From the IMG/VR virus record IMGVR_UViG_3300013901_000011, positions 1 to 28,922 of that record: a stretch of 28,922 nt of DNA, one strand, 5' to 3'. This document shows, piece by piece, positions 14,878 to 26,520 of the stretch. Position 1 is the stretch's first letter; the number at the start of each line of letters is the position of its first letter. Origin of the DNA: a virus. Made by a program: the position numbers and the translations under genes. The notes beneath the pieces are model-generated. The model was given only the letters and a program-made list of their open reading frames with translations. It ran no database searches and was not told the DNA's origin.

Positions 14878-15384
14878 TTATGTCAATTTTACAAAATCAC
14901 CAAATTCATCACGTTCATAAATATCTTGATTGCTTGAACCGCGCAAAGGTAAAGTAATATCTCTTTTATCTTGCTCAAAAGGTCCGTCTATAAGAACGTC
15001 AACAAATCCAAGAATAACTTTAATATAACTATCATTCATATGGTCTAATTCTTTCTTGGTATAACCAGTCCATAAATAAACCTTTAAATCTGGAATTCTA
15101 ATTTTAAGACAAGATAAAATATAACAAATATCTTCTCTATTTTGTTCAGCTAGTGGTTCTCCACCTAAAATACTTAAACTTCTATGAATTCCATTACTTT
15201 TAATTGCATCATAAAGCTCTTCAATTAAAATATCAACATCTTTTTCATAACCACCATTAAAATCCCAAGCTTCTGAGTTATGACACCCAGGGCAATGTCT
15301 ATCACAGCCCTGAGTGAAAAGAGATACAGTAAAGCCAGATTTTGTATTTACAACATCATTTTTAATAATTCCAAAATAACGCAT
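14878..15384 (-). CDS. nrdG: Anaerobic ribonucleotide reductase activating protein (radical SAM)
   Basis: GCDRHCPGCHN is a C-x3-C-x2-C radical-SAM cluster at the N-terminus. The size is about 168 aa. The start overlaps the nrdD stop. Confidence 0.8.
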   Translation of the reverse strand: MRYFGIIKNDVVNTKSGFTVSLFTQGCDRHCPGCHNSEAWDFNGGYEKDVDILIEELYDAIKSNGIHRSLSILGGEPLAEQNREDICYILSCLKIRIPDLKVYLWTGYTKKELDHMNDSYIKVILGFVDVLIDGPFEQDKRDITLPLRGSSNQDIYERDEFGDFVKLT

Positions 15385-17639
15385 TATTGTTCTAACCTTC
15401 CTATATGTTTTATTCTAAGATGAACTTCATTTTGTTTGCCAAGATTAAATGCAGTTTTATAATTACCTGTTAAATAACCTGTTACTCTACGTAATTGCTG
15501 AATATTTTTACTTCCGCAAATTGGACAACAATCATTAAATTCTCCAGTATAGCCACAATCCAAACAAGTGTCATTTGGCACATTAATTGCAAAATAAGGA
15601 ATATCGTGGTCCATTGCATATTGGACTATTTCGTCCAAAGCGTCCAAATTATTTTTAACCGCACCATCTAATTCAACATAAGTAATACATCCCGCAGAAG
15701 AATATCCTGTTAACTGACATTCAATATCAATTTTCTCAAAAGGAGAAACTTCTTTCCAGACTGGAACATGCATTGAATTAGTAAAGAAATCTTTATCACT
15801 TACATCTTTAATTACGCCATATTTAGCTCTAAATTTTTTAAGTGCGGTATAGCAAAGGTTTTCGGCTGGAGTATAGTATACCCCGAAGTTAAGCCTATAT
15901 TCTTCTTTAAATTCCGCACATCTATCTTTAAATAACTGTTCAACCTTCTTAGCTAATTCCATTCCTTTTGGTTCTGTATGGTCACAGCCAATAAGAATTT
16001 GTAATGCCTCTGCTAAACCTAATTGTCCAACAGCTAAAGTACCATGTTTAAGAGCACTTCTAATTCCTTCTTCTGGAACATAACCAGCCATAGTACCATT
16101 TTCATACATGAATTTTGCGGAATCTGCCGGCTGAGAACAAATCCATTCAAAGCGCTCAATTAACATATCTTTTGCCTCATGGATTTTTGTATCAAGTAAA
16201 TCCATAAATACATCAATAATATTATCATCATAAGTATTATCAAAAGATTCTTTAGCTTCCATTGCTAAAGTGGGCAATATGATAGTTACAGGACAAATGT
16301 TGCCGCGCCCATCTTTCTTTTGACCAAAACCATTGATGTCCCAGCCATTGGCCGTGCGGCAACCCATTGTTGAGAAGTAAGTCGTCGGGTCATCTGGGTC
16401 ATATCCTGCATTACCGCTCCAATCGCAATTTGCATAATTAGGATAAAGCCTTGTCGCAGTTGATTTAAGGGCTAATCTATATAAATCATAATTTGGTTCT
16501 CCTGGTTTGCGGTTAACGCCTTTCATACACTGAAAGATACCACATGGGAAAATACTAGTTTTGTGAATTCTACCGACACCCGCCAAAGAACCTTCAAGCA
16601 AAGCTTTAATTACCATTCGTCCTTCTGGAAGTGTACATGTTCCATAATTAATAGAAGTAAAAGGTAACTGATTACCACTTCTACTCTGTAAAGTATTTAA
16701 GTTATGATACATACCCTCAACAGCTTGCTTCGTTTCTTTTTCAGTCATATCATAAGCATATTCATATGTTTTTGGGTAGTTTTCTTTAATATAAGAATCT
16801 ACAATACTAATTTCTTTTCCAGAAGCAAGTAAATCCTCGATATATTTATCTCCATGTGCAATGTACTTAAATCCTTCAATTAAATGCTTTCTGAAAGATT
16901 TCCTTACATATGGAACCGCAGACCAATCAAGATGAGTAGCAGAAACACCTCCAAACTGTTGCAAACTCTGAAGCTGAAATAATACTGCCAAAAGTTGAAA
17001 GAATGTACTGATACTATTTGCTGGACGTACATCAGTTTGTCTTGTATTAAAACCTTTTTCCATGAGAGGGTCTATTGGTAAACTTAAACAGTTATGTGAA
17101 CCAACAGCATATGAACCTGCATCATGAATATAAATTTCATTGTTCATATGGTTCTCTCTAGATTTTTTAGAAATAATATAATCAAAAGCATATTCTTTTG
17201 TCATGACTTCCGCAGCTTCGCCTAAGCGACCTCCAAAAGAGTGCTCATCTACGTTAGCATTTTGATTCTGTACATTGCGGGCTTCCAATTTTTCTCTAAT
17301 TGGCGCAATAAAAACTGCTTCGTGTTCACGCTGTACTTCTTGTTTATAACGATAACGAATATAAGCTCTAGCTACATCTCTACGCTCAGATTGCATAAGC
17401 TCATCTTCTACCATATCTTGAATATCTTCAACTGAAACCGCAGTAGCTCTTTCTTCATCAATCTCATACATTGCATCTTCAATCTCTTTGGCGATGTCTT
17501 TTGCTGTATCATCTTCATAAAGCTGACCGTCTACTTCAATTAAAGCTTTATTAATTGCATTTATAATCTTTTGTCTATCAAAGGGAACTAAAGTTCCGTT
17601 ACGTTTTTGTATCTGCAACATAATGTTGTATTCCCCCAT
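15384..17639 (-). CDS. nrdD: Anaerobic ribonucleoside-triphosphate reductase (class III RNR)
   Basis: There is an N-terminal ATP-cone (LQIQKRNGTLVPFDRQKIINAINKA). A C-terminal Zn-ribbon Cys cluster (CLDCGYTGEFNDCCPICGS) is followed by the glycyl-radical motif RRVTGYLTG. The length is 751 aa. Confidence 0.85.
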   Translation of the reverse strand: MGEYNIMLQIQKRNGTLVPFDRQKIINAINKALIEVDGQLYEDDTAKDIAKEIEDAMYEIDEERATAVSVEDIQDMVEDELMQSERRDVARAYIRYRYKQEVQREHEAVFIAPIREKLEARNVQNQNANVDEHSFGGRLGEAAEVMTKEYAFDYIISKKSRENHMNNEIYIHDAGSYAVGSHNCLSLPIDPLMEKGFNTRQTDVRPANSISTFFQLLAVLFQLQSLQQFGGVSATHLDWSAVPYVRKSFRKHLIEGFKYIAHGDKYIEDLLASGKEISIVDSYIKENYPKTYEYAYDMTEKETKQAVEGMYHNLNTLQSRSGNQLPFTSINYGTCTLPEGRMVIKALLEGSLAGVGRIHKTSIFPCGIFQCMKGVNRKPGEPNYDLYRLALKSTATRLYPNYANCDWSGNAGYDPDDPTTYFSTMGCRTANGWDINGFGQKKDGRGNICPVTIILPTLAMEAKESFDNTYDDNIIDVFMDLLDTKIHEAKDMLIERFEWICSQPADSAKFMYENGTMAGYVPEEGIRSALKHGTLAVGQLGLAEALQILIGCDHTEPKGMELAKKVEQLFKDRCAEFKEEYRLNFGVYYTPAENLCYTALKKFRAKYGVIKDVSDKDFFTNSMHVPVWKEVSPFEKIDIECQLTGYSSAGCITYVELDGAVKNNLDALDEIVQYAMDHDIPYFAINVPNDTCLDCGYTGEFNDCCPICGSKNIQQLRRVTGYLTGNYKTAFNLGKQNEVHLRIKHIGRLEQ

Positions 17640-17691: not shown

Positions 17692-18279
17692 TTATTCCTG
17701 CCCTAACTGCATCGCATAGATTTCATTAATCAATATCATAATATGTTTAATATTCTCTTCTAATTCTATTAAATTATCATTATAAAGAGTATCCTCGAAA
17801 GAAAATTCTTGTTCTAAACCATCAAAATCTATATCATCGGCTTTAAAACGTCTAATAATTTCATATACATTAGGGTTTTCTTCACGCTCAAGTTGTCTAA
17901 TCATTCGTTGTTTATCTGAAGCTACAACATAGAATGGAAACAATATAATATCTTGGTTATGTGAAAGTGCCTCAATCCCCGCAGGATTAAACACCCCAAT
18001 ATTTATCTTGCTTTTGGATAAGGAATCATATGAGGTTCCATAAAACCAATTATTAAAGCAAGTGGCTTCCAACATTTCACCTTTAAGCACTTTTTCCGCA
18101 AACTGCTCAGGATTAAGGAAATGATAATTTACTCCATCTTGCTCTCCGCTTCTAGGTTCACGTGTAGTACATGAAACTATCTCGTGGATAAAGGGGGCGT
18201 CTTTTGTAACGCCCTTTAATATTGTATCTTTTCCACTTCCAGCTTTACCAACTAATGCTATAACAATATATTTATTCAT
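17692..18279 (-). CDS. Guanylate-kinase-like nucleoside monophosphate kinase
   Basis: It has a P-loop (VGKAGSGKDT). The NMP-binding block CTTREPRSGEQDGVNYHFL...FAEKVLKGEMLE...YGTS parallels the guanylate kinase TTRxPRxGExDGxDYxF...YGT motif. Confidence 0.65.
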   Translation of the reverse strand: MNKYIVIALVGKAGSGKDTILKGVTKDAPFIHEIVSCTTREPRSGEQDGVNYHFLNPEQFAEKVLKGEMLEATCFNNWFYGTSYDSLSKSKINIGVFNPAGIEALSHNQDIILFPFYVVASDKQRMIRQLEREENPNVYEIIRRFKADDIDFDGLEQEFSFEDTLYNDNLIELEENIKHIMILINEIYAMQLGQE

Positions 18280-19622
18280 CTTCTTCTAAGCCTTGATACC
18301 TTTCTGTTTTTAATAACAAATCTCCATTATCTTCTAACTTATCAATTTTATATAATTGATGTCCACCACTAGAAGCATATTTTTTAGCCACAAATTCATC
18401 TCCGCTTCTTATACCTTGTACTACAATCATATTTCCGCGGTTAAACCAACTGCGTTCCACCACGTGTTTAGCTCCATCCGCGCCACGCTCAGATATCTGC
18501 TTATCAAAGAGAGAGAAATATTCTTTTCTAAACTTAACGCTAACAACCCCATCAGTTGTTAACAAAGATACAGTTCCTTTATCCTTATTTTTTGCAATAC
18601 AAGTTCCGCAGATTTTGAATAACTTAAACATCTTAATCTCTTTATTGCCTTTGTAGAATACTTTATCTACTATTGGCTGCTCTGGAATATCTTTGAAATT
18701 GGTTAAGCCATATTTGCCCATATTAACATGCGCCAATTCATGTTCATGATAATAGAAACATAATGCTTCCATTTCCCAAGATGAATAATTTCCTTCTGCA
18801 TAATTTTTCCAATCTGCATAAAAAATTCTTTCATTCAAATTTTGTAAGATTTTTTCTTTATCTCCCGCAATCCAATTTCTAAAAACATCCATTTCTTTGT
18901 GATAAACTCGTTCCCAAGTTTTTACATTTAATTTATTTCCATCCTCAATAAGCCCTTCTTTTTCAATCTCTGCCAAGAAATCCATTGAACGCTCATCAAG
19001 AATAAAATGAGTTGTGGTTTTAGATGGTTTACACATAGCTTTTAAGTATCTATTAAATTCATAGATTCTTCTAGCTAAAATCTTTTCATCTGTATCTTCT
19101 GGCAATAAACCATAACGAATTAAACCTGGAAGATTAGACAATGTAAGATTTTTCTTCTTATCACAAGTTTCCCATATGAACCAAGCCATAGCTAATTTTC
19201 TATCCATAAAAGTATCAAATGCTCCACCTTTAATCAAAGAAATCATAGCTTGTTTATTTGGTTTAACTTTATAATAATAATCTTTTATTGATATATATGG
19301 ACGATTTTGAATAGTTCTTTCAATTACATCATCACCAACATTCAACATAGCTTTCAATCCAAAAAGAATCTTATTATGTTTAATATCTGGCTTAAATCCA
19401 AAATCAGAAGTATTAATATCAACTAAAGAAATCTTAGTATCTGTCTGCATAATTTTACCAATAGCATTTGCAATCTTGGTATAATCTGTGCTTCCATTTG
19501 CCTCAAGCTCTCCACTGTCTGTAATGAGACAAGCTGTATTCCATAAAATAGTGGGATAATGATATGCCAGATTCATCTCTTGCAAAGCTACTAATGAATA
19601 AGCTAATGTATGAGACTGATTG
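18272..19622 (-). CDS. dnaE: DNA polymerase III alpha subunit (DnaE-type), exon 3 (C-terminal part). The exon's 5' end is inferred.
   Basis: The frame upstream of the TTG at 19585 continues as ...NQSHTLAYSLVALQEMNLAYHYP..., which matches the DnaE FNKSHAxAY...AYLKxHYP region. It ends with an OB-fold-like C-terminus. Confidence 0.65.
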
Positions 19623-20856
19623 CTTTTTTAAATTAAAAAACTGACTATTTTTTACACACTTCGTTCTAGGAGCCACCTAGAGTGCGCATACTATTTCGGT
19701 TTTCATAGGCTTCGTTTCCTAAAACCTAGCCACGTATCAATAGTGACCCTACTCCCAGTCTCACCCGGGATAGTCGATACAACATTTTTAAAAGAGAGTA
19801 TTCCAAATTTTTTTATTTTCTTCTTTATTTTTATTTAATGGATAAATAAATCTATCATCTTTTCTATTACGTCCAGTATTTAATGCAGTTATAGTACTTT
19901 TAGCTTTAGAATATTTTTCACCGATTTGAGCATGAGTTAAACTTGAAAAAATTAAATCATATTTAGCATCATGGCTCCAAGCGCCATCTGAACAGCTCTT
20001 TTTACATAAAGGATATTTTAATGTTTCATCAAACCATTTTTCTCCTTTATTAATCATACTAATATAACCCGCAGAAATTCCATACTTTGCAGAAATTATT
20101 TTATATTCAATACCTTCAGCAATATCTGATATAATATTTTCTTTTGTTTCTTTAGAAAACTTAGTATGTAAAGTTGCTAATGGATAAGTTAAACTTTCAT
20201 CTTTAAAATTTAATCCTAAATTTATATTAGAAAGAAAACTGTCTGTTAATTGTGGAAATATCTTTTTAATTTCAAAATATTCATAACCATCTATTAACAT
20301 TTGATGTATTTTTTTTACATCATCTAAAGTAAAAATATGAGATAGCTTTACTTGTTGTTCAAGAGTTAATTTTGGTTTTGCACATCCATCTCCGCCTTTA
20401 GTTATATTATAACCATTTTGCGTAACTAAACTTTTATAATAGGAAATAAAATATATTTCTCTTTCATTTAAATAATCTCTTCCAAAGCTGTCATCTATTT
20501 CTTCTATTATCTCAAAATCAAAATTTTCATACCCATATTTTCTTATAGCACAATGAAATGGTAAATTATATCCACTAGCTTTCTTATTAAAAGATTCTGA
20601 TTTATGACCTCTACATCTTTTAGCTATATCATTTGTTTGTCCTATATATATCTTACCATTTATCTTATTGGTAAATTTATAAATATATAACATTGTCTCC
20701 CTCCTTTCTTTGGAAATATATTTAGTCTCTTTTAAATTTGTCACGAGATTTTACCCTCGTTAGCCATATACTACTTTTTCTGGCTAAGAATTAAGTTTTT
20801 AATTGTATATGACCCCGCTGATAAGCGGTTAAGTATGTTGGGTCCAATCTTACTCA
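19623..20856 (-). mobile_element. Group I self-splicing intron 2 in dnaE (boundaries inferred, ±10 nt), with an embedded GIY-YIG homing endonuclease gene
   Basis: Splicing at ...GGGTT | ...AAAAAG | CAATCAG... restores the GYGF-NQSH coding. The 5' exon ends in U and the intron ends in G. The non-coding flanks are 112 nt and 165 nt. The 3' flank contains a gtatcgactatcc motif that intron 1 shares. Confidence 0.55.
19788..20744 (-). CDS. GIY-YIG homing endonuclease (intron-encoded, I-TevI-like with NUMOD/helix-turn-helix C-terminal modules)
   Basis: The N-terminal YIYKFTNKINGKIYIGQT...NEREIYFISYY...GYNITKGG is a GIY-YIG domain. The C-terminal LTHAQIGEKYSKAKSTITALNTGR is a helix-turn-helix-like module. 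It has its own ribosome-binding site (aaggaggga). Confidence 0.8.
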   Translation of the reverse strand: MTNLKETKYISKERRETMLYIYKFTNKINGKIYIGQTNDIAKRCRGHKSESFNKKASGYNLPFHCAIRKYGYENFDFEIIEEIDDSFGRDYLNEREIYFISYYKSLVTQNGYNITKGGDGCAKPKLTLEQQVKLSHIFTLDDVKKIHQMLIDGYEYFEIKKIFPQLTDSFLSNINLGLNFKDESLTYPLATLHTKFSKETKENIISDIAEGIEYKIISAKYGISAGYISMINKGEKWFDETLKYPLCKKSCSDGAWSHDAKYDLIFSSLTHAQIGEKYSKAKSTITALNTGRNRKDDRFIYPLNKNKEENKKIWNTLF

Positions 20857-22049
20857 AACCCATAACCCTTGCTCATAGATACTAATACCTCCCATACATA
20901 TTTTGCGAAATTAGGTTTAATTCCCTTCTCTGCGGTTATTTTATAAAATTCTTCAGTTAATTTATCGAAAGCCGCGGGATTCTTTTTAGCAATAGATTTA
21001 CGTAACCCATCTGCCCAGGTTAGAGAAAAACCGCCGAGTTCTGGAAGCTGTACAAGCTCCATAAACTGTTCCTGTGCGATACATAAACCATAAGAAGAAT
21101 CAAGAATTGGTTCAAGAATTTCTTTTTCCTTTTCACCTAAACTCCATTTCGCAAGCTCTTTATCCCAAGCTGTAGGGTCGTTTTTAAATCTAGCTAATTT
21201 GTCTGTTGGCATCTCTGTACTACCTTCTTGCGCCATAAGTCGAATAGTTGAATTTAGTACTGCTAAGTCATCGACTGAAGTTGGCTTTAAAGTTGTAATA
21301 CCTTTGATACCACTTTGCTTTTCCATCTGGAATAATGAAAGAATCTTATGTTGCCAAATCATCTTCCACATTTCTTTAGAATCTCTATCTATTTTATAAA
21401 TCCCAAGAACTTTTTCATATGTTTCTTTTAATGTTGGTTCTGGTGTAACATAACCATCTTCTACAAGTAAATTAAGACAAACATGAATCTTATCTTCAGC
21501 CTCAACTGAAAGTGCATCATATTTAATTAATGATACATCTTCTGCATCATGCAAGTCAAACTGTGTACAAATAGTTCCATCAGGTGCACGCATCAGACCA
21601 GTAGAGTTTGTAAATGGTTCATCTACAAAGATAACTCCACCTGCGTGAATACCAGATCCGCAAATTAATCCTTCAATCTTCTGCGCGACTTCCCATAATT
21701 CAGGATAATCGTCTCTCATGGCTTTCACAAAGGACGCTACTGGTTTCATATCTTTTTCTTCATCACCATAATAGACCTGTTTTAAAGTTCTTAGCTGTCC
21801 TCTATCTGCTGGAATTAAACTTGCTAAATACTGAGCCTCATCGACATCAATTTTTAATCCTCTCGCCGCAGTTAAGATAGCCGCTTTACTCTTTTCAGTT
21901 CTAAAAGTTGTTACATTAGCTACTCTATCTTCACCATAAAATTCTCTAAACTTATTTAATACCGCAGAACGTTTAGACCCTTCAATATCAAAATCTACGT
22001 CTAAGACGGATACACGCTCTGGATTTAAAACATAATACTCCTTTGTCAC
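20857..22049 (-). CDS. dnaE: DNA polymerase III alpha subunit (DnaE-type), exon 2 (boundaries inferred)
   Basis: ...LNPERVSVLDVDFDIEG...GIHAGGVIFVDEP...TQFDLHDAEDVSLIKYDALSVEA... matches the DnaE palm/thumb region. It ends ...SKGYGF immediately before an in-frame stop. Confidence 0.65.
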
Positions 22050-23025
22050 CAAAGGTACTGACTATCTCTTACTCTCCAATATATTCTACAAATAAACCTA
22101 AATATTTTTTATTTTTTCTTATTCTGTCACAAATTTCTTGACGAACTATTTTAGGATTCGTCATTTTAGTATATTTATTTTCAATTAACCAATTAGCTGC
22201 TTCAGTGGTAGTTTGAAATTCAAATTTTGTACCATCATTATTAATAAATCTAACTGGTTTTGATTGTTGTTGGGCAGGCGTAAATCTTTTTACTCCGTTT
22301 TCATTTAAAATTCTATCTATGGTGGAATGGTCACAACCAATTTCTTTTGCAACTTTACGAGCAGATTTTAATTCATAATATTTTTCAATAATATCATCTA
22401 CATCCCAATTATATAATTGAGTTGCTCTTCCACCTAAAGTTGAATTATAACCATTAAAATAACTATCATAAAATTCTATCCAATATTTTTCTCTTTCATC
22501 TAATTTATCGTTTGGAACTTCCTCTAAAACTTCACAAATAAAATTTTCAATTCCATACTTGTTAAAAGCTTTATATAATACTATTTGAGAAAAATAATCT
22601 TTATTACTATTATTTTTATGTTGCTGAAAACGTTTATTTACTGTTTTTATTGTTTGCCCAATATAAATTTTATTATTAAGTTTGTTTGTAATTTTATAAA
22701 TAAATCCCATAATTTCTATCTCCTTTTTAATTTGATTAGAATATTATGGAGAGTCCACGCGCTTCGAATAGTGATAAAATCTATTCTACATCCTTACACT
22801 CATCAGGATTAGTCGATACACTCCTTACCTTTCATTGGCTCTCCAATAGAAAGTAAAAAGCACGGTATAAAGTTTAATTAAAACTGTCCACCGTTAGCAA
22901 AGAATATAAATTCTTCACACCGCTTTATCATGCGTTCACGCAGTTTATTTTGAGCTTGTCGCCAAGCAAAGGAGGCCTTTAAACCGAACGGTTAACCTCC
23001 AAGCAAAAGTTCTAGTCTTTTCCCT
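22050..23025 (-). mobile_element. Group I self-splicing intron 1 in dnaE (boundaries inferred, ±15 nt), with an embedded GIY-YIG homing endonuclease gene
   Basis: Exon 1 coding stops making DnaE sense immediately after GITQINPL, and the 5' exon ends in U. About 315 nt of non-coding sequence precedes the homing endonuclease gene and contains a gtatcgactaatcc motif. The intron ends in G just before ...VTKEYYVLNPER. An in-frame stop lies 3 codons upstream of the exon 2 frame. Confidence 0.5.
22069..22710 (-). CDS. GIY-YIG homing endonuclease (intron-encoded)
   Basis: GFIYKITNKLNNKIYIGQT...EREKYWIEFYDS...GYNSTLGG is a GIY-YIG domain. The C-terminal SARKVAKEIGCDHSTIDRIL is a helix-turn-helix-like module. 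Confidence 0.8.
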   Translation of the reverse strand: MGFIYKITNKLNNKIYIGQTIKTVNKRFQQHKNNSNKDYFSQIVLYKAFNKYGIENFICEVLEEVPNDKLDEREKYWIEFYDSYFNGYNSTLGGRATQLYNWDVDDIIEKYYELKSARKVAKEIGCDHSTIDRILNENGVKRFTPAQQQSKPVRFINNDGTKFEFQTTTEAANWLIENKYTKMTNPKIVRQEICDRIRKNKKYLGLFVEYIGE

Positions 23026-24312
23026 AAGTGGATTTATTTGTGTAATACCTAACACATAGAGAAGAATAAATCCAACACCAGAACCACGACCTGGCCCGAC
23101 TAAAGAACCAGCTTCCCAGCATAAATCAATAATCTGCTGAAGATTAAGATAATATGCTGACCAATGTGCTTTATTCACATTTGAGGAAATCCATGTCATT
23201 TCAAGATTACTATTAATTTCATCATATGATTCCTGATTCTGTAAGTCTGAATGTTCTGCAATACCATCAAGAATTGCTTTAACGAGTTCTCTATCACCTA
23301 CAAAATCTGATTCATTGAATGTTTTTAACATTGGAATCTTCTCTATCCAATCTGTAGTTAATTGAGAATGATAAGTTTTCCATTTTAAAGAAGGAATCTT
23401 TAAAGGTTTTAAAATTGAATAATCTTCACATTTTTCCTTTATTTCTAATATGTTTTCATATGCAGTATCTAATTCTTCTCTGGTTAATTCTAAATGCTCT
23501 TCAAGGTCATCTGTATCCATAAGATAAGTTGTCGCATAAAAAGCATCTACCTCACGTTCCTTATCCTGAGAATTAAGATACGCTTTATGAATTTCTCTAT
23601 CTTCTTTTTTAAGATAATGACTATCTGTTGTTATAATATATGGAATCTTTGTATGATTTGATAATTCAATTAATTTACGATTAACATAAGTTTGTTCCTT
23701 AGATACAGAAGGTTGTAATTCTAAATAAAAATTACCTCTTCCAAATACAGATTCCATAAGATAACACCAATTAATAATTTTTAACCATAAGGCTTCTGAA
23801 TCTGTTTGCTGATATTTTAAAATTTGAGTTGGTAACATACCACCTAGACATGCGGAAGACCCAATTACATGACCTGGATTTTCCTTAATTACATCTAATA
23901 AATCTTGATAATATGTAGGAACTCTTCTTTGTCCACCTGCCATATAACTGCGGTGCCATGCTCTTGTAGAGATTTCACAAATTTGCTGATAGCCAACTAA
24001 GTCTTTCGCTAATAAGATAAAGTGGTAATATTTATCTTCACCTTTAACGAAGTTAGTCTCATTCAGTCCATCTCTACAAAGATAAATTTCGTTACCCATT
24101 ATAACTTTTAATGGGATATTTTTCTCTTTTATTTTCTTATATATTTTCTCTACCCTAACCGCAGATGCAATAGTTTCATGGTCAGTTATCGCTACAACAG
24201 AATGACCTAATTCAGCCGCACGGTAAATTAGGTCATCTTCGTGAATAATACAGTCCAGTAAACGAAGATTTGACATCTGGGTATGATTATGCAGTGACCC
24301 TGGATATAACAT
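23026..24312 (-). CDS. dnaE: DNA polymerase III alpha subunit (DnaE-type), exon 1 (PHP domain plus the start of the polymerase core)
   Basis: The N-terminal PHP motifs are present (HNHTQMS...AITDHETI). ...GPGRGSGVGFILLYVLGITQINPL corresponds to the conserved GPGRGSAAGSLVAY-LGIT-IDPL motif. The ORF continues into intron sequence and reaches a stop at 22945. Confidence 0.7.
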
Positions 24313-25013: not shown

Positions 25014-26209
25014 TAATCCGCAAGAACTACAAGTTTAACGCCAGCTCTAGTGCAAGCCGTGTACATAGCAGAACGGTGTTCAGCTTTATCAAATGGAAAC
25101 CCTTCCTCAAGTGCCAATACTTTAGGCCATTCACTACCTTGTGCTTTCCAAAAAGTTAAAGCATATCCATATGTAAGCTCTTCTGGAATCATATCTTTAT
25201 ACTTTGTCTTATTTACCTTATATTTCATTTTGTTATCTAAAATAGGAATACCAGTAGTGATACATTGTTCATCGCAATGTAAATCATCAAAAACGTCACC
25301 ATAATCTGTAACGAAAGTTCCATTCAAATAAGCAACCCTATTTTCTGGAATACCAAAAAAACTAAACCGCTCAGGTAAATAAAATGCTTCATAACTAAAA
25401 TCATTTAAAGTCCCAACGCATCCATTAGTCAGATAACCACCTTTATCTGACATAATATCCCAATTATTTCTAAGGACAATAAGTTTTTCACCTTTTTCTA
25501 TTGGTGCAGTATATCCTCTTAATTGTCTTGCAATTTGATTAAGCTGATTGCGGGTTTTATTTGTAGCACATAAAGTTTGGTCAGCCCAATTTAGCATAGT
25601 TGGATCAAATTCTTTTTTTGGTAAAACAATAGCATCATCAGATTTGAAACCACTAATAGATTCACCTTCACGAATTCGCATACTTAAACGAATAATACCA
25701 CTTTCCTGTGCCTGTCTCATAATTTCATCAAGAAAAATATGAGGACTATATAAAAGATTATTATTCTGACTTTTTTCGATTGGCGGAAGCTGACCTGGGT
25801 CGCCGCAGAAAATTATATAAACCGGATAACTCAAAAGCAATTTTGTCATATCCATCGGAAGCATAGAGCATTCGTCTACAACAACGACCTTTGCCTCTAT
25901 ATATTCTACTGGCTCTCTTGTAAATTTTCCATTAGGGAGGGGTCTAGTTTTATATAATAGCTTATGTGCGGTTTTACAATTAGGATTTCCTTTCTGACGC
26001 AAAACTTCAGCAGCTTTGCCCGTATATGCGCAATAAGCTACATCTAATTCTGGGTCAACTCCATAAGAAGAAAGGGCTGAAATAATAAATCTGATAAGTG
26101 TTGACTTTCCGGACCCCGCATATCCAGAGATTACGGTACACTTTTCTCCATCAAGGTATCTTTGAACTGCAATTTTAAGCCCTTGCTCCTGGCGTAATGT
26201 AAGTTCCAT
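25013..26209 (-). CDS. RecD/Dda-like superfamily 1 DNA helicase
   Basis: Walker A is GYAGSGKST, Walker B is VVVDECSML, motif III is CGDPGQLPPI, and the C-terminus YALTFWKAQGSEWPKVL...YTACTRAGVKLVVL is typical of RecD/Dda/TraA-type helicases. Confidence 0.75.
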   Translation of the reverse strand: MELTLRQEQGLKIAVQRYLDGEKCTVISGYAGSGKSTLIRFIISALSSYGVDPELDVAYCAYTGKAAEVLRQKGNPNCKTAHKLLYKTRPLPNGKFTREPVEYIEAKVVVVDECSMLPMDMTKLLLSYPVYIIFCGDPGQLPPIEKSQNNNLLYSPHIFLDEIMRQAQESGIIRLSMRIREGESISGFKSDDAIVLPKKEFDPTMLNWADQTLCATNKTRNQLNQIARQLRGYTAPIEKGEKLIVLRNNWDIMSDKGGYLTNGCVGTLNDFSYEAFYLPERFSFFGIPENRVAYLNGTFVTDYGDVFDDLHCDEQCITTGIPILDNKMKYKVNKTKYKDMIPEELTYGYALTFWKAQGSEWPKVLALEEGFPFDKAEHRSAMYTACTRAGVKLVVLAD

Positions 26210-26520
26210 TAGAGAATCTCAACCACCTTTCCATAAATATTGCGTTTTGTAATCCAACCATTTACATGCCCATGATTATTTGAAATCTGAAACTGATTAT
26301 TATTTCTAATAGCCGTTATTTTGTGTAAATAAAAATGTCCATTTACTTTACAAAATACAATGTCATTTTTCTTTAATTCTACATTATCTGCGGGAATGAC
26401 TCTTACTGGCTGCCCTGATTTCAGAATAGGAGTCATGGACTGACCAAAGCCTGTGACGATACATTCCTCACCTTTTTGAAGATGAATAGCTGTAATTAAA
26501 TTTTCTTTTCCTTCATACAT
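26209..26520 (-). CDS. S24 (LexA/UmuD-like) peptidase domain protein with no DNA-binding domain
   Basis: VTGFGQSMTPILKSGQPVRV...NDIVFCKVNGHFYLHKI fits the S24 fold pattern (G-x-S-M-x-P ... G-D-I-V ... K). It is only 103 aa long. Confidence 0.45.
   Translation of the reverse strand: MYEGKENLITAIHLQKGEECIVTGFGQSMTPILKSGQPVRVIPADNVELKKNDIVFCKVNGHFYLHKITAIRNNNQFQISNNHGHVNGWITKRNIYGKVVEIL

Follow-up and report, generated by a model that had tools for sequence, protein, structure and literature searches.

Group I introns that carry homing endonuclease genes are textbook inhabitants of phage genes for replication and nucleotide metabolism, and the core finding reported here is confirmatory in this respect. 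We analyse a viral DNA stretch of 28,922 nucleotides (nt) (IMG/VR record IMGVR_UViG_3300013901_000011, positions 1 to 28,922; hereafter the window) in which two mobile group I introns from the same family very probably split a single replicative polymerase gene of the DnaE type, similar to yorL of phage SPβ. Among the phage genes that reviews list as hosts of introns are those for family-A polymerases, ribonucleotide reductases and terminases (PMC3984707). Our literature searches returned no report of introns in phage yorL or dnaE, and the locus would add a family-C (DnaE/YorL) polymerase to the documented hosts. The exons, the introns with their elements and the open reading frames (ORFs) located below by window coordinates all lie on the minus strand.

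SPβ is a phage of the same kind, and its YorL is the closest polymerase (37% identity over 99% of the length). A 'refuge' concept was reportedly put forward for its introns by Lazarevic in 2001. Two of its genes, bnrdE and bnrdF, carry annotated group I introns (NC_001884). As in the window, these are accompanied by homing endonuclease genes, reside in genes of nucleotide metabolism or replication, and place several mobile elements in one conserved gene. In contrast, the intron host in SPβ is ribonucleotide reductase, its own yorL is uninterrupted and the bnrdF endonuclease is of the HNH type. In a review of SPβ, these introns are described as self-splicing with reference to Lazarevic et al. 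1998, and they are the sole introns mentioned (PMC8270828).

For the ribozyme itself, the introns of Twort orf142 are instructive (AF132670, whose annotation reads just 'contains group 1 introns'); we take them to belong to subgroup IA2. Their P7 strands are identical to those of the window family (CGACUAU...AUAGUC), the order P7.1, GUA, P7.2, GAAAU, P3', P8, (G)AUAUAGUC and P9 hairpin is shared, the P4-P5 segment is similar, and one gene likewise holds several introns. However, the Twort introns follow the classical order P1-P2-P3-J3/4-P4 and lack an ORF, whereas the window family has two hairpins between P3 and J3/4 and most of its members have no P2. The T4 td intron with I-TevI differs in host gene and in ribozyme periphery. 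It resembles the window in that the endonucleases are homologous to the I-TevI catalytic domain and the insertion interrupts a strongly conserved motif of an enzyme. Like the ORF of the second window intron, that of td is looped out of P6a.

The same host gene is interrupted in Enterococcus phage EF1/EF5 and Staphylococcus phage SPbeta-like (MF001358, KT429160), where introns of the window family split a YorL-type DnaE close to the two motifs that are affected in the window (49.7-101.5 bits with model R1, see below). The second EF1 endonuclease is 37% identical to that of window intron 2. The insertion points of these phages differ from those of the window: the first is shifted ~10 codons downstream relative to site 1, the second 7 nt upstream relative to site 2. 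The first EF1 intron carries an HNH gene and the Staphylococcus phage intron just a 96-nt ORF. In the EF1 record this gene bears the label 'HNH homing endonuclease # Phage intron'; the record of the Staphylococcus phage shows no more than a split dnaE_1/dnaE_2. Literature searches found no paper on the dnaE introns of these phages.

One polymerase gene in three exons

The three minus-strand pieces form one YorL/DnaE-type gene for the polymerase III alpha subunit, as a preliminary description of this DNA, made from the letters alone, had proposed. Consecutive DnaE domains are spread over the ORFs 24312-22945, 22052-20850 and 19585-18272. According to Pfam, piece 1 contains the PHP domain and positions 32-86 of the DNA_pol3_alpha profile, piece 2 contains positions 94-259 of the same profile and the finger domain, and piece 3 contains HHH_6. 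The PF07733 domain is thus cut in two between pieces 1 and 2.

The splice junctions were set on the DNA by the rule that U closes the upstream exon and G the intervening sequence, and the boundaries of all three exons also by colinearity with intron-less alleles. Exon 1 (22995..24312) extends from the PHP domain to ...GITQINPLREKTRTFAWR and the first base of Phe440. Exon 2 (20857..22030) contributes the last two bases of Phe440, LNPERVS...DVDFDIEG...SKGYG and the first two bases of Phe831. Exon 3 (18272..19622) supplies the third base of Phe831, continues with NQSHTLAYSLVALQEMN... and reaches the C-terminus. Both junctions therefore split phenylalanine codons (440 and 831), and the predicted exon-exon joins read ...GCTTGGAGGT to TTTTAAATCC... 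and ...GGTTATGGGTT to CAATCAGTCT... The terminal U of the exons and the terminal G of the introns had been recognised before, and they are found with the 5' boundaries at 22995/22994 and 20857/20856. The earlier boundaries of the first gap have to be shifted: the end of exon 1 moves from 23026, after INPL, to a point 31 nt downstream at 22995, after ...REKTRTFAWR and the first Phe base, and exon 2 starts 19 nt later than the proposed 22049, at 22030.

Joined in this way, the exons give 3843 nt in frame and a protein of 1280 amino acids (aa), longer than the ~1150 aa first estimated, with zero internal stops. In the spliced protein PF07733 becomes a single match (32-259/260) across junction 1. 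TIGR00594 scores 486 bits (cutoff 434) in a single stretch from aa 7 to 976 through both junctions, so that the expected continuous DnaE match is recovered. The PHP, palm/NTPase, finger and HhH domains follow in order, and the full-length family model is above its cutoff. Searches of phage records with tblastn yield single-piece alignments with 99% coverage and ~37% identity to SPβ YorL and its relatives, and the pairwise alignment with the uninterrupted SPβ YorL (aa 8-1272) has no gap at either junction.

The strongest evidence for the predicted join is provided by four metagenomic phage contigs from IMG/VR (L004-L007), which contain an uninterrupted gene of exactly 3843 nt. They are colinear with the spliced coding sequence base for base, at 97% aa and 92% nt identity, and read straight across both predicted joins. 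Intron-less and intron-containing alleles thus coexist among close relatives, a presence/absence polymorphism at a fixed site of a conserved gene. Between these alleles and the spliced coding sequence, synonymous divergence (dS) is ~0.45 and the ratio of nonsynonymous to synonymous divergence (dN/dS) ~0.03, which indicates that all three exons are kept under strong purifying selection. We do not claim a co-conversion tract: exon identity within 60 nt of the junctions is 83-87% versus 92% overall, and other segments are equally low.

Genes can also be divided without splicing, as in Aeromonas phage Aeh1, whose NrdA is split by mobE. Free-standing endonuclease insertions could similarly have left three separately translated polypeptides which assemble into the polymerase with no RNA splicing. 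The gene caller reports three separate ORFs, and the GenBank relatives are annotated accordingly (dnaE_1/dnaE_2 in the Staphylococcus phage, three pieces in EF1). However, both junctions lie inside codons. Piece 2 has TTG as its sole start, without a ribosome-binding site, and in piece 3 the conserved NQSH motif is not preceded by any in-frame start codon and would be lost. That fragments 2 and 3 lack in-frame starts which would preserve the conserved motifs counts for a single spliced gene. In addition, the gaps contain group I cores whose helices covary and whose guides can pair with both exons, and ORF-less introns occur in the same motif in relatives. We consider separate translation of the pieces highly improbable.

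DnaE is a classic intein host, as in the split inteins of cyanobacterial DnaE, and this standing is what would favour another kind of intervening element, be it an intein, a group II intron or an assembly chimera. Against this, the insertions do not continue the reading frame of the exons and include stop codons, Pfam detects no Hint or reverse-transcriptase domains in the window ORFs, the group I-specific P1, P7, P10 and terminal G are present, and both introns recur at identical sites in independent contigs. The sequence effectively refutes these readings, whose probability we regard as close to nil.

Architecture of the two introns

The preliminary description had placed a group I intron in each gap and had looked to the Rfam models for their recognition. 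Rfam gives no group I match in either gap of the window, neither at the gathering score nor at E<=10, where chance snoRNA-like matches or nothing are returned. At E<=1 it is equally silent about a core in the interrupted dnaE of Staphylococcus phage SPbeta-like and Enterococcus phage EF1 (L002/L003). The group I model RF00028 does match a classical intron in contig L106 and a different intron family at site 2 in L020.

By eye, both gaps hold R- and S-like elements (GUAUCGACUA...AUAGUCAG) together with a GCUAACG motif. A scan of IMG/VR with the pattern TGTATCGACTAN{0,1}TCC returned more than 120 stretches. Among 127 motif matches, GCTAACG stands upstream in 85 and the downstream layout is present in ~87. 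This layout comprises P7, the P7.1 hairpin, GUA, the P7.2 hairpin, an optional extra hairpin, CGAAAU or CGAAGC, the 3' strand of P3, P8, AAGAUAUAGUCAG and the P9 hairpin. Two covariance models were built with the window excluded. R1 covers the 3' domain from P7 to P9 (69 relatives; 16 of 23 pairs with compensatory changes) and R2 the 5' domain (41 relatives). Outside the two introns, neither model matches anywhere in the 28.9-kb window. R1 recovers the Twort orf142 introns (48.8 bits) and SPβ bnrdE (34.9 bits) and bnrdF (28.1 bits), with nothing else in 23 kb of SPβ and zero matches in the uninterrupted yorL or in the intron-less L004-L007. R2 finds one Twort intron (33.8 bits) and neither SPβ intron. 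The models thus pick out group I introns with proven self-splicing and tell alleles with an interruption from those without. Together with the covariation at each site, they reveal the group I core that had been proposed for both gaps, with pairings from P1 to P10.

P3, P4, P6, P7 and P8 can be placed in both introns by covariation or invariance; the exception is P5, which is absent from intron 2. Both introns also have the P7.1 and P7.2 hairpins, which show covariation across the family as well as among the orthologues, and the Rfam alignment of the L106 intron has an insert at the same position. The 5' half departs from the classical order P1-P2-P3-J3/4-P4. Throughout the family, the 5' strand of P3 precedes two hairpins (segment 22930-22886 in window intron 1, 20833-20761 in window intron 2) which are followed by GCUAA and P4. 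In most members this strand comes directly after P1, and in window intron 1 after a P2 hairpin. The placement of P3 is backed by covariation in both window introns and, family-wide, by pairing of at least 6 contiguous base pairs in 66% of own partners versus 31% of mismatched ones (p = 5e-10). The family therefore resembles IA2 in its 3' core (Twort/SPβ type, with P7.1 and P7.2), and is not a plain IA2 member. The silence of Rfam is a failure of model sensitivity for this family rather than a missing core. It was traced to the 5' layout and the ORF insertions, the former being the probable explanation of this blindness.

Intron 1 (22031..22994, 964 nt) is an IA2-like group I intron by the covariance models and same-site orthologues. 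R2 matches its 5' domain (22859-22954, 37.5 bits, E 1e-9), and R1 matches on either side of the ORF (22705-22822, 31.1 bits; 22028-22092, 36.2 bits). The guide GCCUCC (22976-22971) pairs with the exon sequence GGAGGU and forms the U·G pair at the splice site. P7 is composed of the strands 22814-22809 and 22065-22060, the P9 hairpin occupies 22055-22040, and the terminal G is 22031. An alignment of six sequences with the ORF deleted, including five same-site relatives (L043, L052, L055, L069, L072), supports a model of 14 helices: P1, P1a, P2, P3, the two hairpins, P4, P5, P6, P7, P7.1, P7.2, P8 and P9. Across its 84 pairs, 97.2% of the cells are paired, compared with ~40% when the partners are slid. 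The model contains 23 compensatory pairs versus 2-4 in the slid controls, and none of 500 shuffles reaches the real values.

The pairings of intron 1 that define the splice sites covary as well. P1 alternates between GGAGGU/GCCUCC and GGAGAU/GUCUCC, while the U·G pair is invariant in the 6 orthologues. The long-range P3 occurs as CUGCGU/GCGUGG, CUCCGU/GCGGAG and CCUCGU/GCGAGG, and the P8 stem around the endonuclease ORF shows covariation too. P10 (UUUAAA/UUUAAA) is 97% paired and covaries in L043 and L055; the guide is contiguous for P10 and P1, with UUUAAAG directly followed by GCCUCC.

Intron 2 (19623..20856, 1234 nt) belongs to the same family on the same kinds of evidence. R2 matches 20740-20847 with the P5 positions deleted (42.7 bits, E 3e-11), and R1 matches 19613-19783 (70.1 bits, E 9e-15). 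Its contiguous guide (20849-20839) consists of GAUUG for P10 and GACCCA for P1, in this order. The 5' strand of P3 lies at 20837-20833, the P5-less P4 hairpin at 20760-20743, the P6a strands at 20736-20726 and 19797-19787, P7 at 19775-19770 and 19648-19643, and the terminal G at 19623.

A same-site orthologue of intron 2 was not found in IMG/VR, and its exact guide string has zero matches in the metagenome collection. A metagenome scan with the endonuclease protein of intron 2 returned 20 related loci. Those with 45-74% identity (15 of the 20, L201-L215) are all situated in DnaE at aa 831-835, and 7 of these 15 examined loci lie exactly at the intron 2 site (L201-L206, L215). With 8 same-site orthologues, a model of 15 helices and 85 pairs has 95% of its cells paired versus 32-50% when slid, with 42 compensatory pairs versus 4-10; again, none of 500 shuffles reaches the real values. 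P1 (UGGGUU/GACCCA) covaries with the exon as GGGUU/GACCC, GGAUU/GGUCC and GGCUU/GAGCU, and its terminal U·G pair is invariant in the 8 orthologues. Covariation extends to P3, P6/P6a, P7.1, P7.2 and P8, and P10 (CAAUC/GAUUG) covaries in L201.

A joint alignment of intron 2 with introns at other sites (L047, L134, L086) was dropped as their peripheral elements are too divergent. A matrix of own versus other guide pairings was used instead; it is crude, since the L047 guide scores higher with the window junction than on its own diagonal. Between P7.2 and the 3' strand of P3, intron 2 has an extra hairpin with the conserved loop UUUUAGGAAACGAAG (19745-19704). The window shares it with L201, L202 and EF1 intron 2 (L003), but the same-site introns of L203-L206 and L215 lack it. 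This patchy distribution suggests gain or loss of a module, or recombination between introns.

Several observations weigh against two functional group I introns. RF00028 remains silent on both even at E<=10. The custom models yield rough E-values, and a 14-nt seed from the window introns themselves served to collect the family; this seed overlaps part of the 3' model only and none of the 5' model. The sixth pair of P7 in intron 1 is an A·A mismatch. Intron 2 has no P5 helix, and its P9 is a weak U-A run which aligns poorly among the orthologues (55% paired). P5 usually belongs to the P4-P6 domain, which helps to hold the splice-site wobble pair; its absence means that efficient self-splicing of intron 2 without cofactors is not guaranteed. 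In addition, promoter-like sites occur at chance level, which leaves the expression of the endonucleases unexplained.

In intron 2, P4 is capped directly by the 8-nt loop GGUAAAAU. The resulting hairpin, ACGAG-GGUAAAAU-CUCGU, is identical or one base off in at least 15 introns whose endonucleases are 42-74% identical. It is shared with L047, L134, L086 and L201-L215, while EF1 intron 2 and most of the family retain P5. One could hold that one or both introns, notably the P5-less one, are splicing-defective relics and that the polymerase gene is dead, as in a defective prophage or a decaying element. The missing P5, the weak P9 and endonuclease decay in a relative (the frameshift in L052) would fit such a view. 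However, the exons have a dN/dS of 0.03 against the intron-less alleles with no frameshift or stop, and both endonuclease ORFs are intact with their catalytic motifs. Moreover, the P5-less P4 hairpin is kept in these at least 15 diverged introns while the flanking helices covary, which argues for selection on this architecture. We therefore judge decay to be very unlikely, and the two mobile introns of one family remain the preferred reading.

The literature searches, whose results were noisy, found no description of 'P3.1/P3.2' hairpins or of a P5-less layout; no firm claim of novelty is made. It is conceivable, though we rate it as doubtful, that the introns represent a very abundant phage group I lineage of perhaps undescribed architecture, with a relocated-P2 layout and, in the sub-lineage of intron 2, a P5-less core in which J4/5 and J5/4 are fused. 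If such P5-less ribozymes self-splice, the minimal P4-P6 domain would have to be redefined. If they depend on assistance, a maturase role might fall to the GIY-YIG protein encoded in the intron or to a host factor. In both cases Rfam misses the family, and the intron content of phages may be underestimated. The conserved P5-less ribozyme lends itself to a concrete and cheap in vitro splicing test.

Endonuclease genes and proposed mobility

Each intron encodes an endonuclease of the I-TevI type, as judged by fold family. The gene in intron 1 (22069..22710, 213 aa) is located in the P8 loop and matches Pfam GIY-YIG (PF01541, E 6e-13), the I-TevI catalytic domain (PDB 1MK0/1LN0, E 7e-15) and PHROG homing endonuclease families. 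The gene in intron 2 (19788..20693, 301 aa from the ATG at 20693) is located in the P6a loop; in the ORF listing it extends to a GTG at 20744. It matches PF01541 (E 8e-10), 1MK0 (E 2e-5) and the homing endonuclease family PHROG 7168 (E 4e-41). The preliminary description had called both genes free-standing GIY-YIG/NUMOD endonucleases. The GIY-YIG assignment stands by Pfam and by the similarity to I-TevI, whereas Pfam finds no NUMOD domain in either protein at E<=0.01 and the genes are intron-encoded rather than free-standing. Weak HTH_50/HTH_38 matches below cutoff are seen in the first endonuclease alone.

Both genes possess their own ribosome-binding site, as described before (AAGGAG in intron 1, AAGGAGG in intron 2). 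The first ORF ends 38 nt, and not about 19 nt, before the 3' splice site. It does overlap the ribozyme as had been suspected: the 3' strand of P8 (22078-22071) consists of its final two codons plus the initial base of its TAA. Likewise, the last codons and the stop of the second ORF lie within the 3' strand of P6a. The sole 'terminator' between the exons is the P9 hairpin of intron 1. Among the same-site relatives, the intron 1 ORF is kept in L043 and L055 and frameshifted in L052, which is the usual stage of decay of such elements.

From this comparative evidence we infer splicing, endonuclease activity and homing, and the interpretation put forward in the preliminary description appears supported at the level of sequence. 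The polymerase gene would be transcribed as a single pre-mRNA, in which each intron would fold. The internal guide would bind the six exon bases just before the intron, the final pair being the U·G wobble, and next the bases at the start of the following exon (P10). Transesterification initiated by guanosine would excise the intron and ligate the exons, and the spliced mRNA would be translated into the polymerase of 1280 aa. Each endonuclease gene, equipped with its own ribosome-binding site, sits in the loop of a peripheral helix, which is P8 for intron 1 and P6a for intron 2. Its predicted product would cut intron-less polymerase alleles of co-infecting relatives, and repair would copy the intron into the cut allele.

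Insertion sites in relatives and genomic context

At least four regions of DnaE bear introns across the relatives (aa 440, 560, 606 and 831). Around the FNxSH motif, five insertion points fall within 16 nt, at -7, 0, +1, +6 and +8 nt. The +1 point, one nt downstream of the intron 2 site, is occupied by an unrelated group I family which Rfam recognises (AAUUGCGGGAA...GGUAUAGUCC). Its members at DnaE aa 831 include L020:5161-5480 (RF00028, 50.6 bits), L037, L044, L049, L070 and L073; some copies are ORF-less and 316-340 nt long, and others measure ~1160 nt. Such crowded sites, with two unrelated intron families one nt apart, offer a compact natural system for the study of competition between homing elements and of guide retargeting. 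Gene callers and Rfam miss introns of the window family, with the consequence that polymerases are annotated as fragments; R1 and R2 could repair these annotations.

Introns of the window family are also found at DnaE aa 560 and aa 606 (L068:3842-4005, L069:3885-4006, L072:3884-4010; R1 88-112 bits), and L069 and L072 likewise contain two introns each, at another pair of sites. R1 also matches 2-3 kb downstream of dnaE (L052:8869-8985, 47 bits; L068:8560-8681, 41 bits), presumably in introns of another gene. Copies of the P7 motif spaced ~1.3 kb apart on one strand in L124 (756, 2086 and 3404, minus) and L108 (5612 and 6931) suggest yet another gene with several endonuclease-bearing introns. 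In a number of contigs (L008, L015, L020, L030, L045, L059, L070) the DnaE alignment breaks at aa 868-874 with ~190 nt unaligned. Beyond this break, identity drops from ~70% to ~40% over the C-terminal third and R1 has no match, which suggests a swapped C-terminal module and not an intron.

Against annotated phages, megablast of the whole region and blastn of the 5' part of intron 1 return nothing, and blastn matches of the 3' part of intron 2 are limited to EF1/EF5, VRE9_3 and the Lak megaphages. In Prevotella phage Lak-A1/A2/B1-B9 (540-550 kb), unannotated sites are ~81% identical to the P7.2/extra-hairpin segment of intron 2; by this sequence similarity, the family probably occurs in these megaphages too. 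The relatives of the window come from gut and rumen metagenomes. A host assignment from relatives in metagenome-assembled genomes was rejected. The contigs concerned (L197-L200, 63-74%, ruminant gut) are binned as Methanobrevibacter, Erysipelotrichaceae, Bacteroidales and Lachnospiraceae, inconsistent taxa which probably reflect phage contigs mis-binned into these genomes.

The genes around the polymerase identify the region as an SPβ-like replication module. They encode a RecJ-like exonuclease (compare yorK beside yorL in SPβ), a RecD-like helicase, guanylate kinase and NrdD/NrdG. NrdD is the anaerobic ribonucleotide reductase and an intron host in T4; in the window, NrdD (15384-17639) and NrdG (14878-15384) are uninterrupted. 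Between the RecJ-like and RecD-like genes lies a small ORF (26209-26520) similar to S24 peptidases of the LexA/UmuD type.

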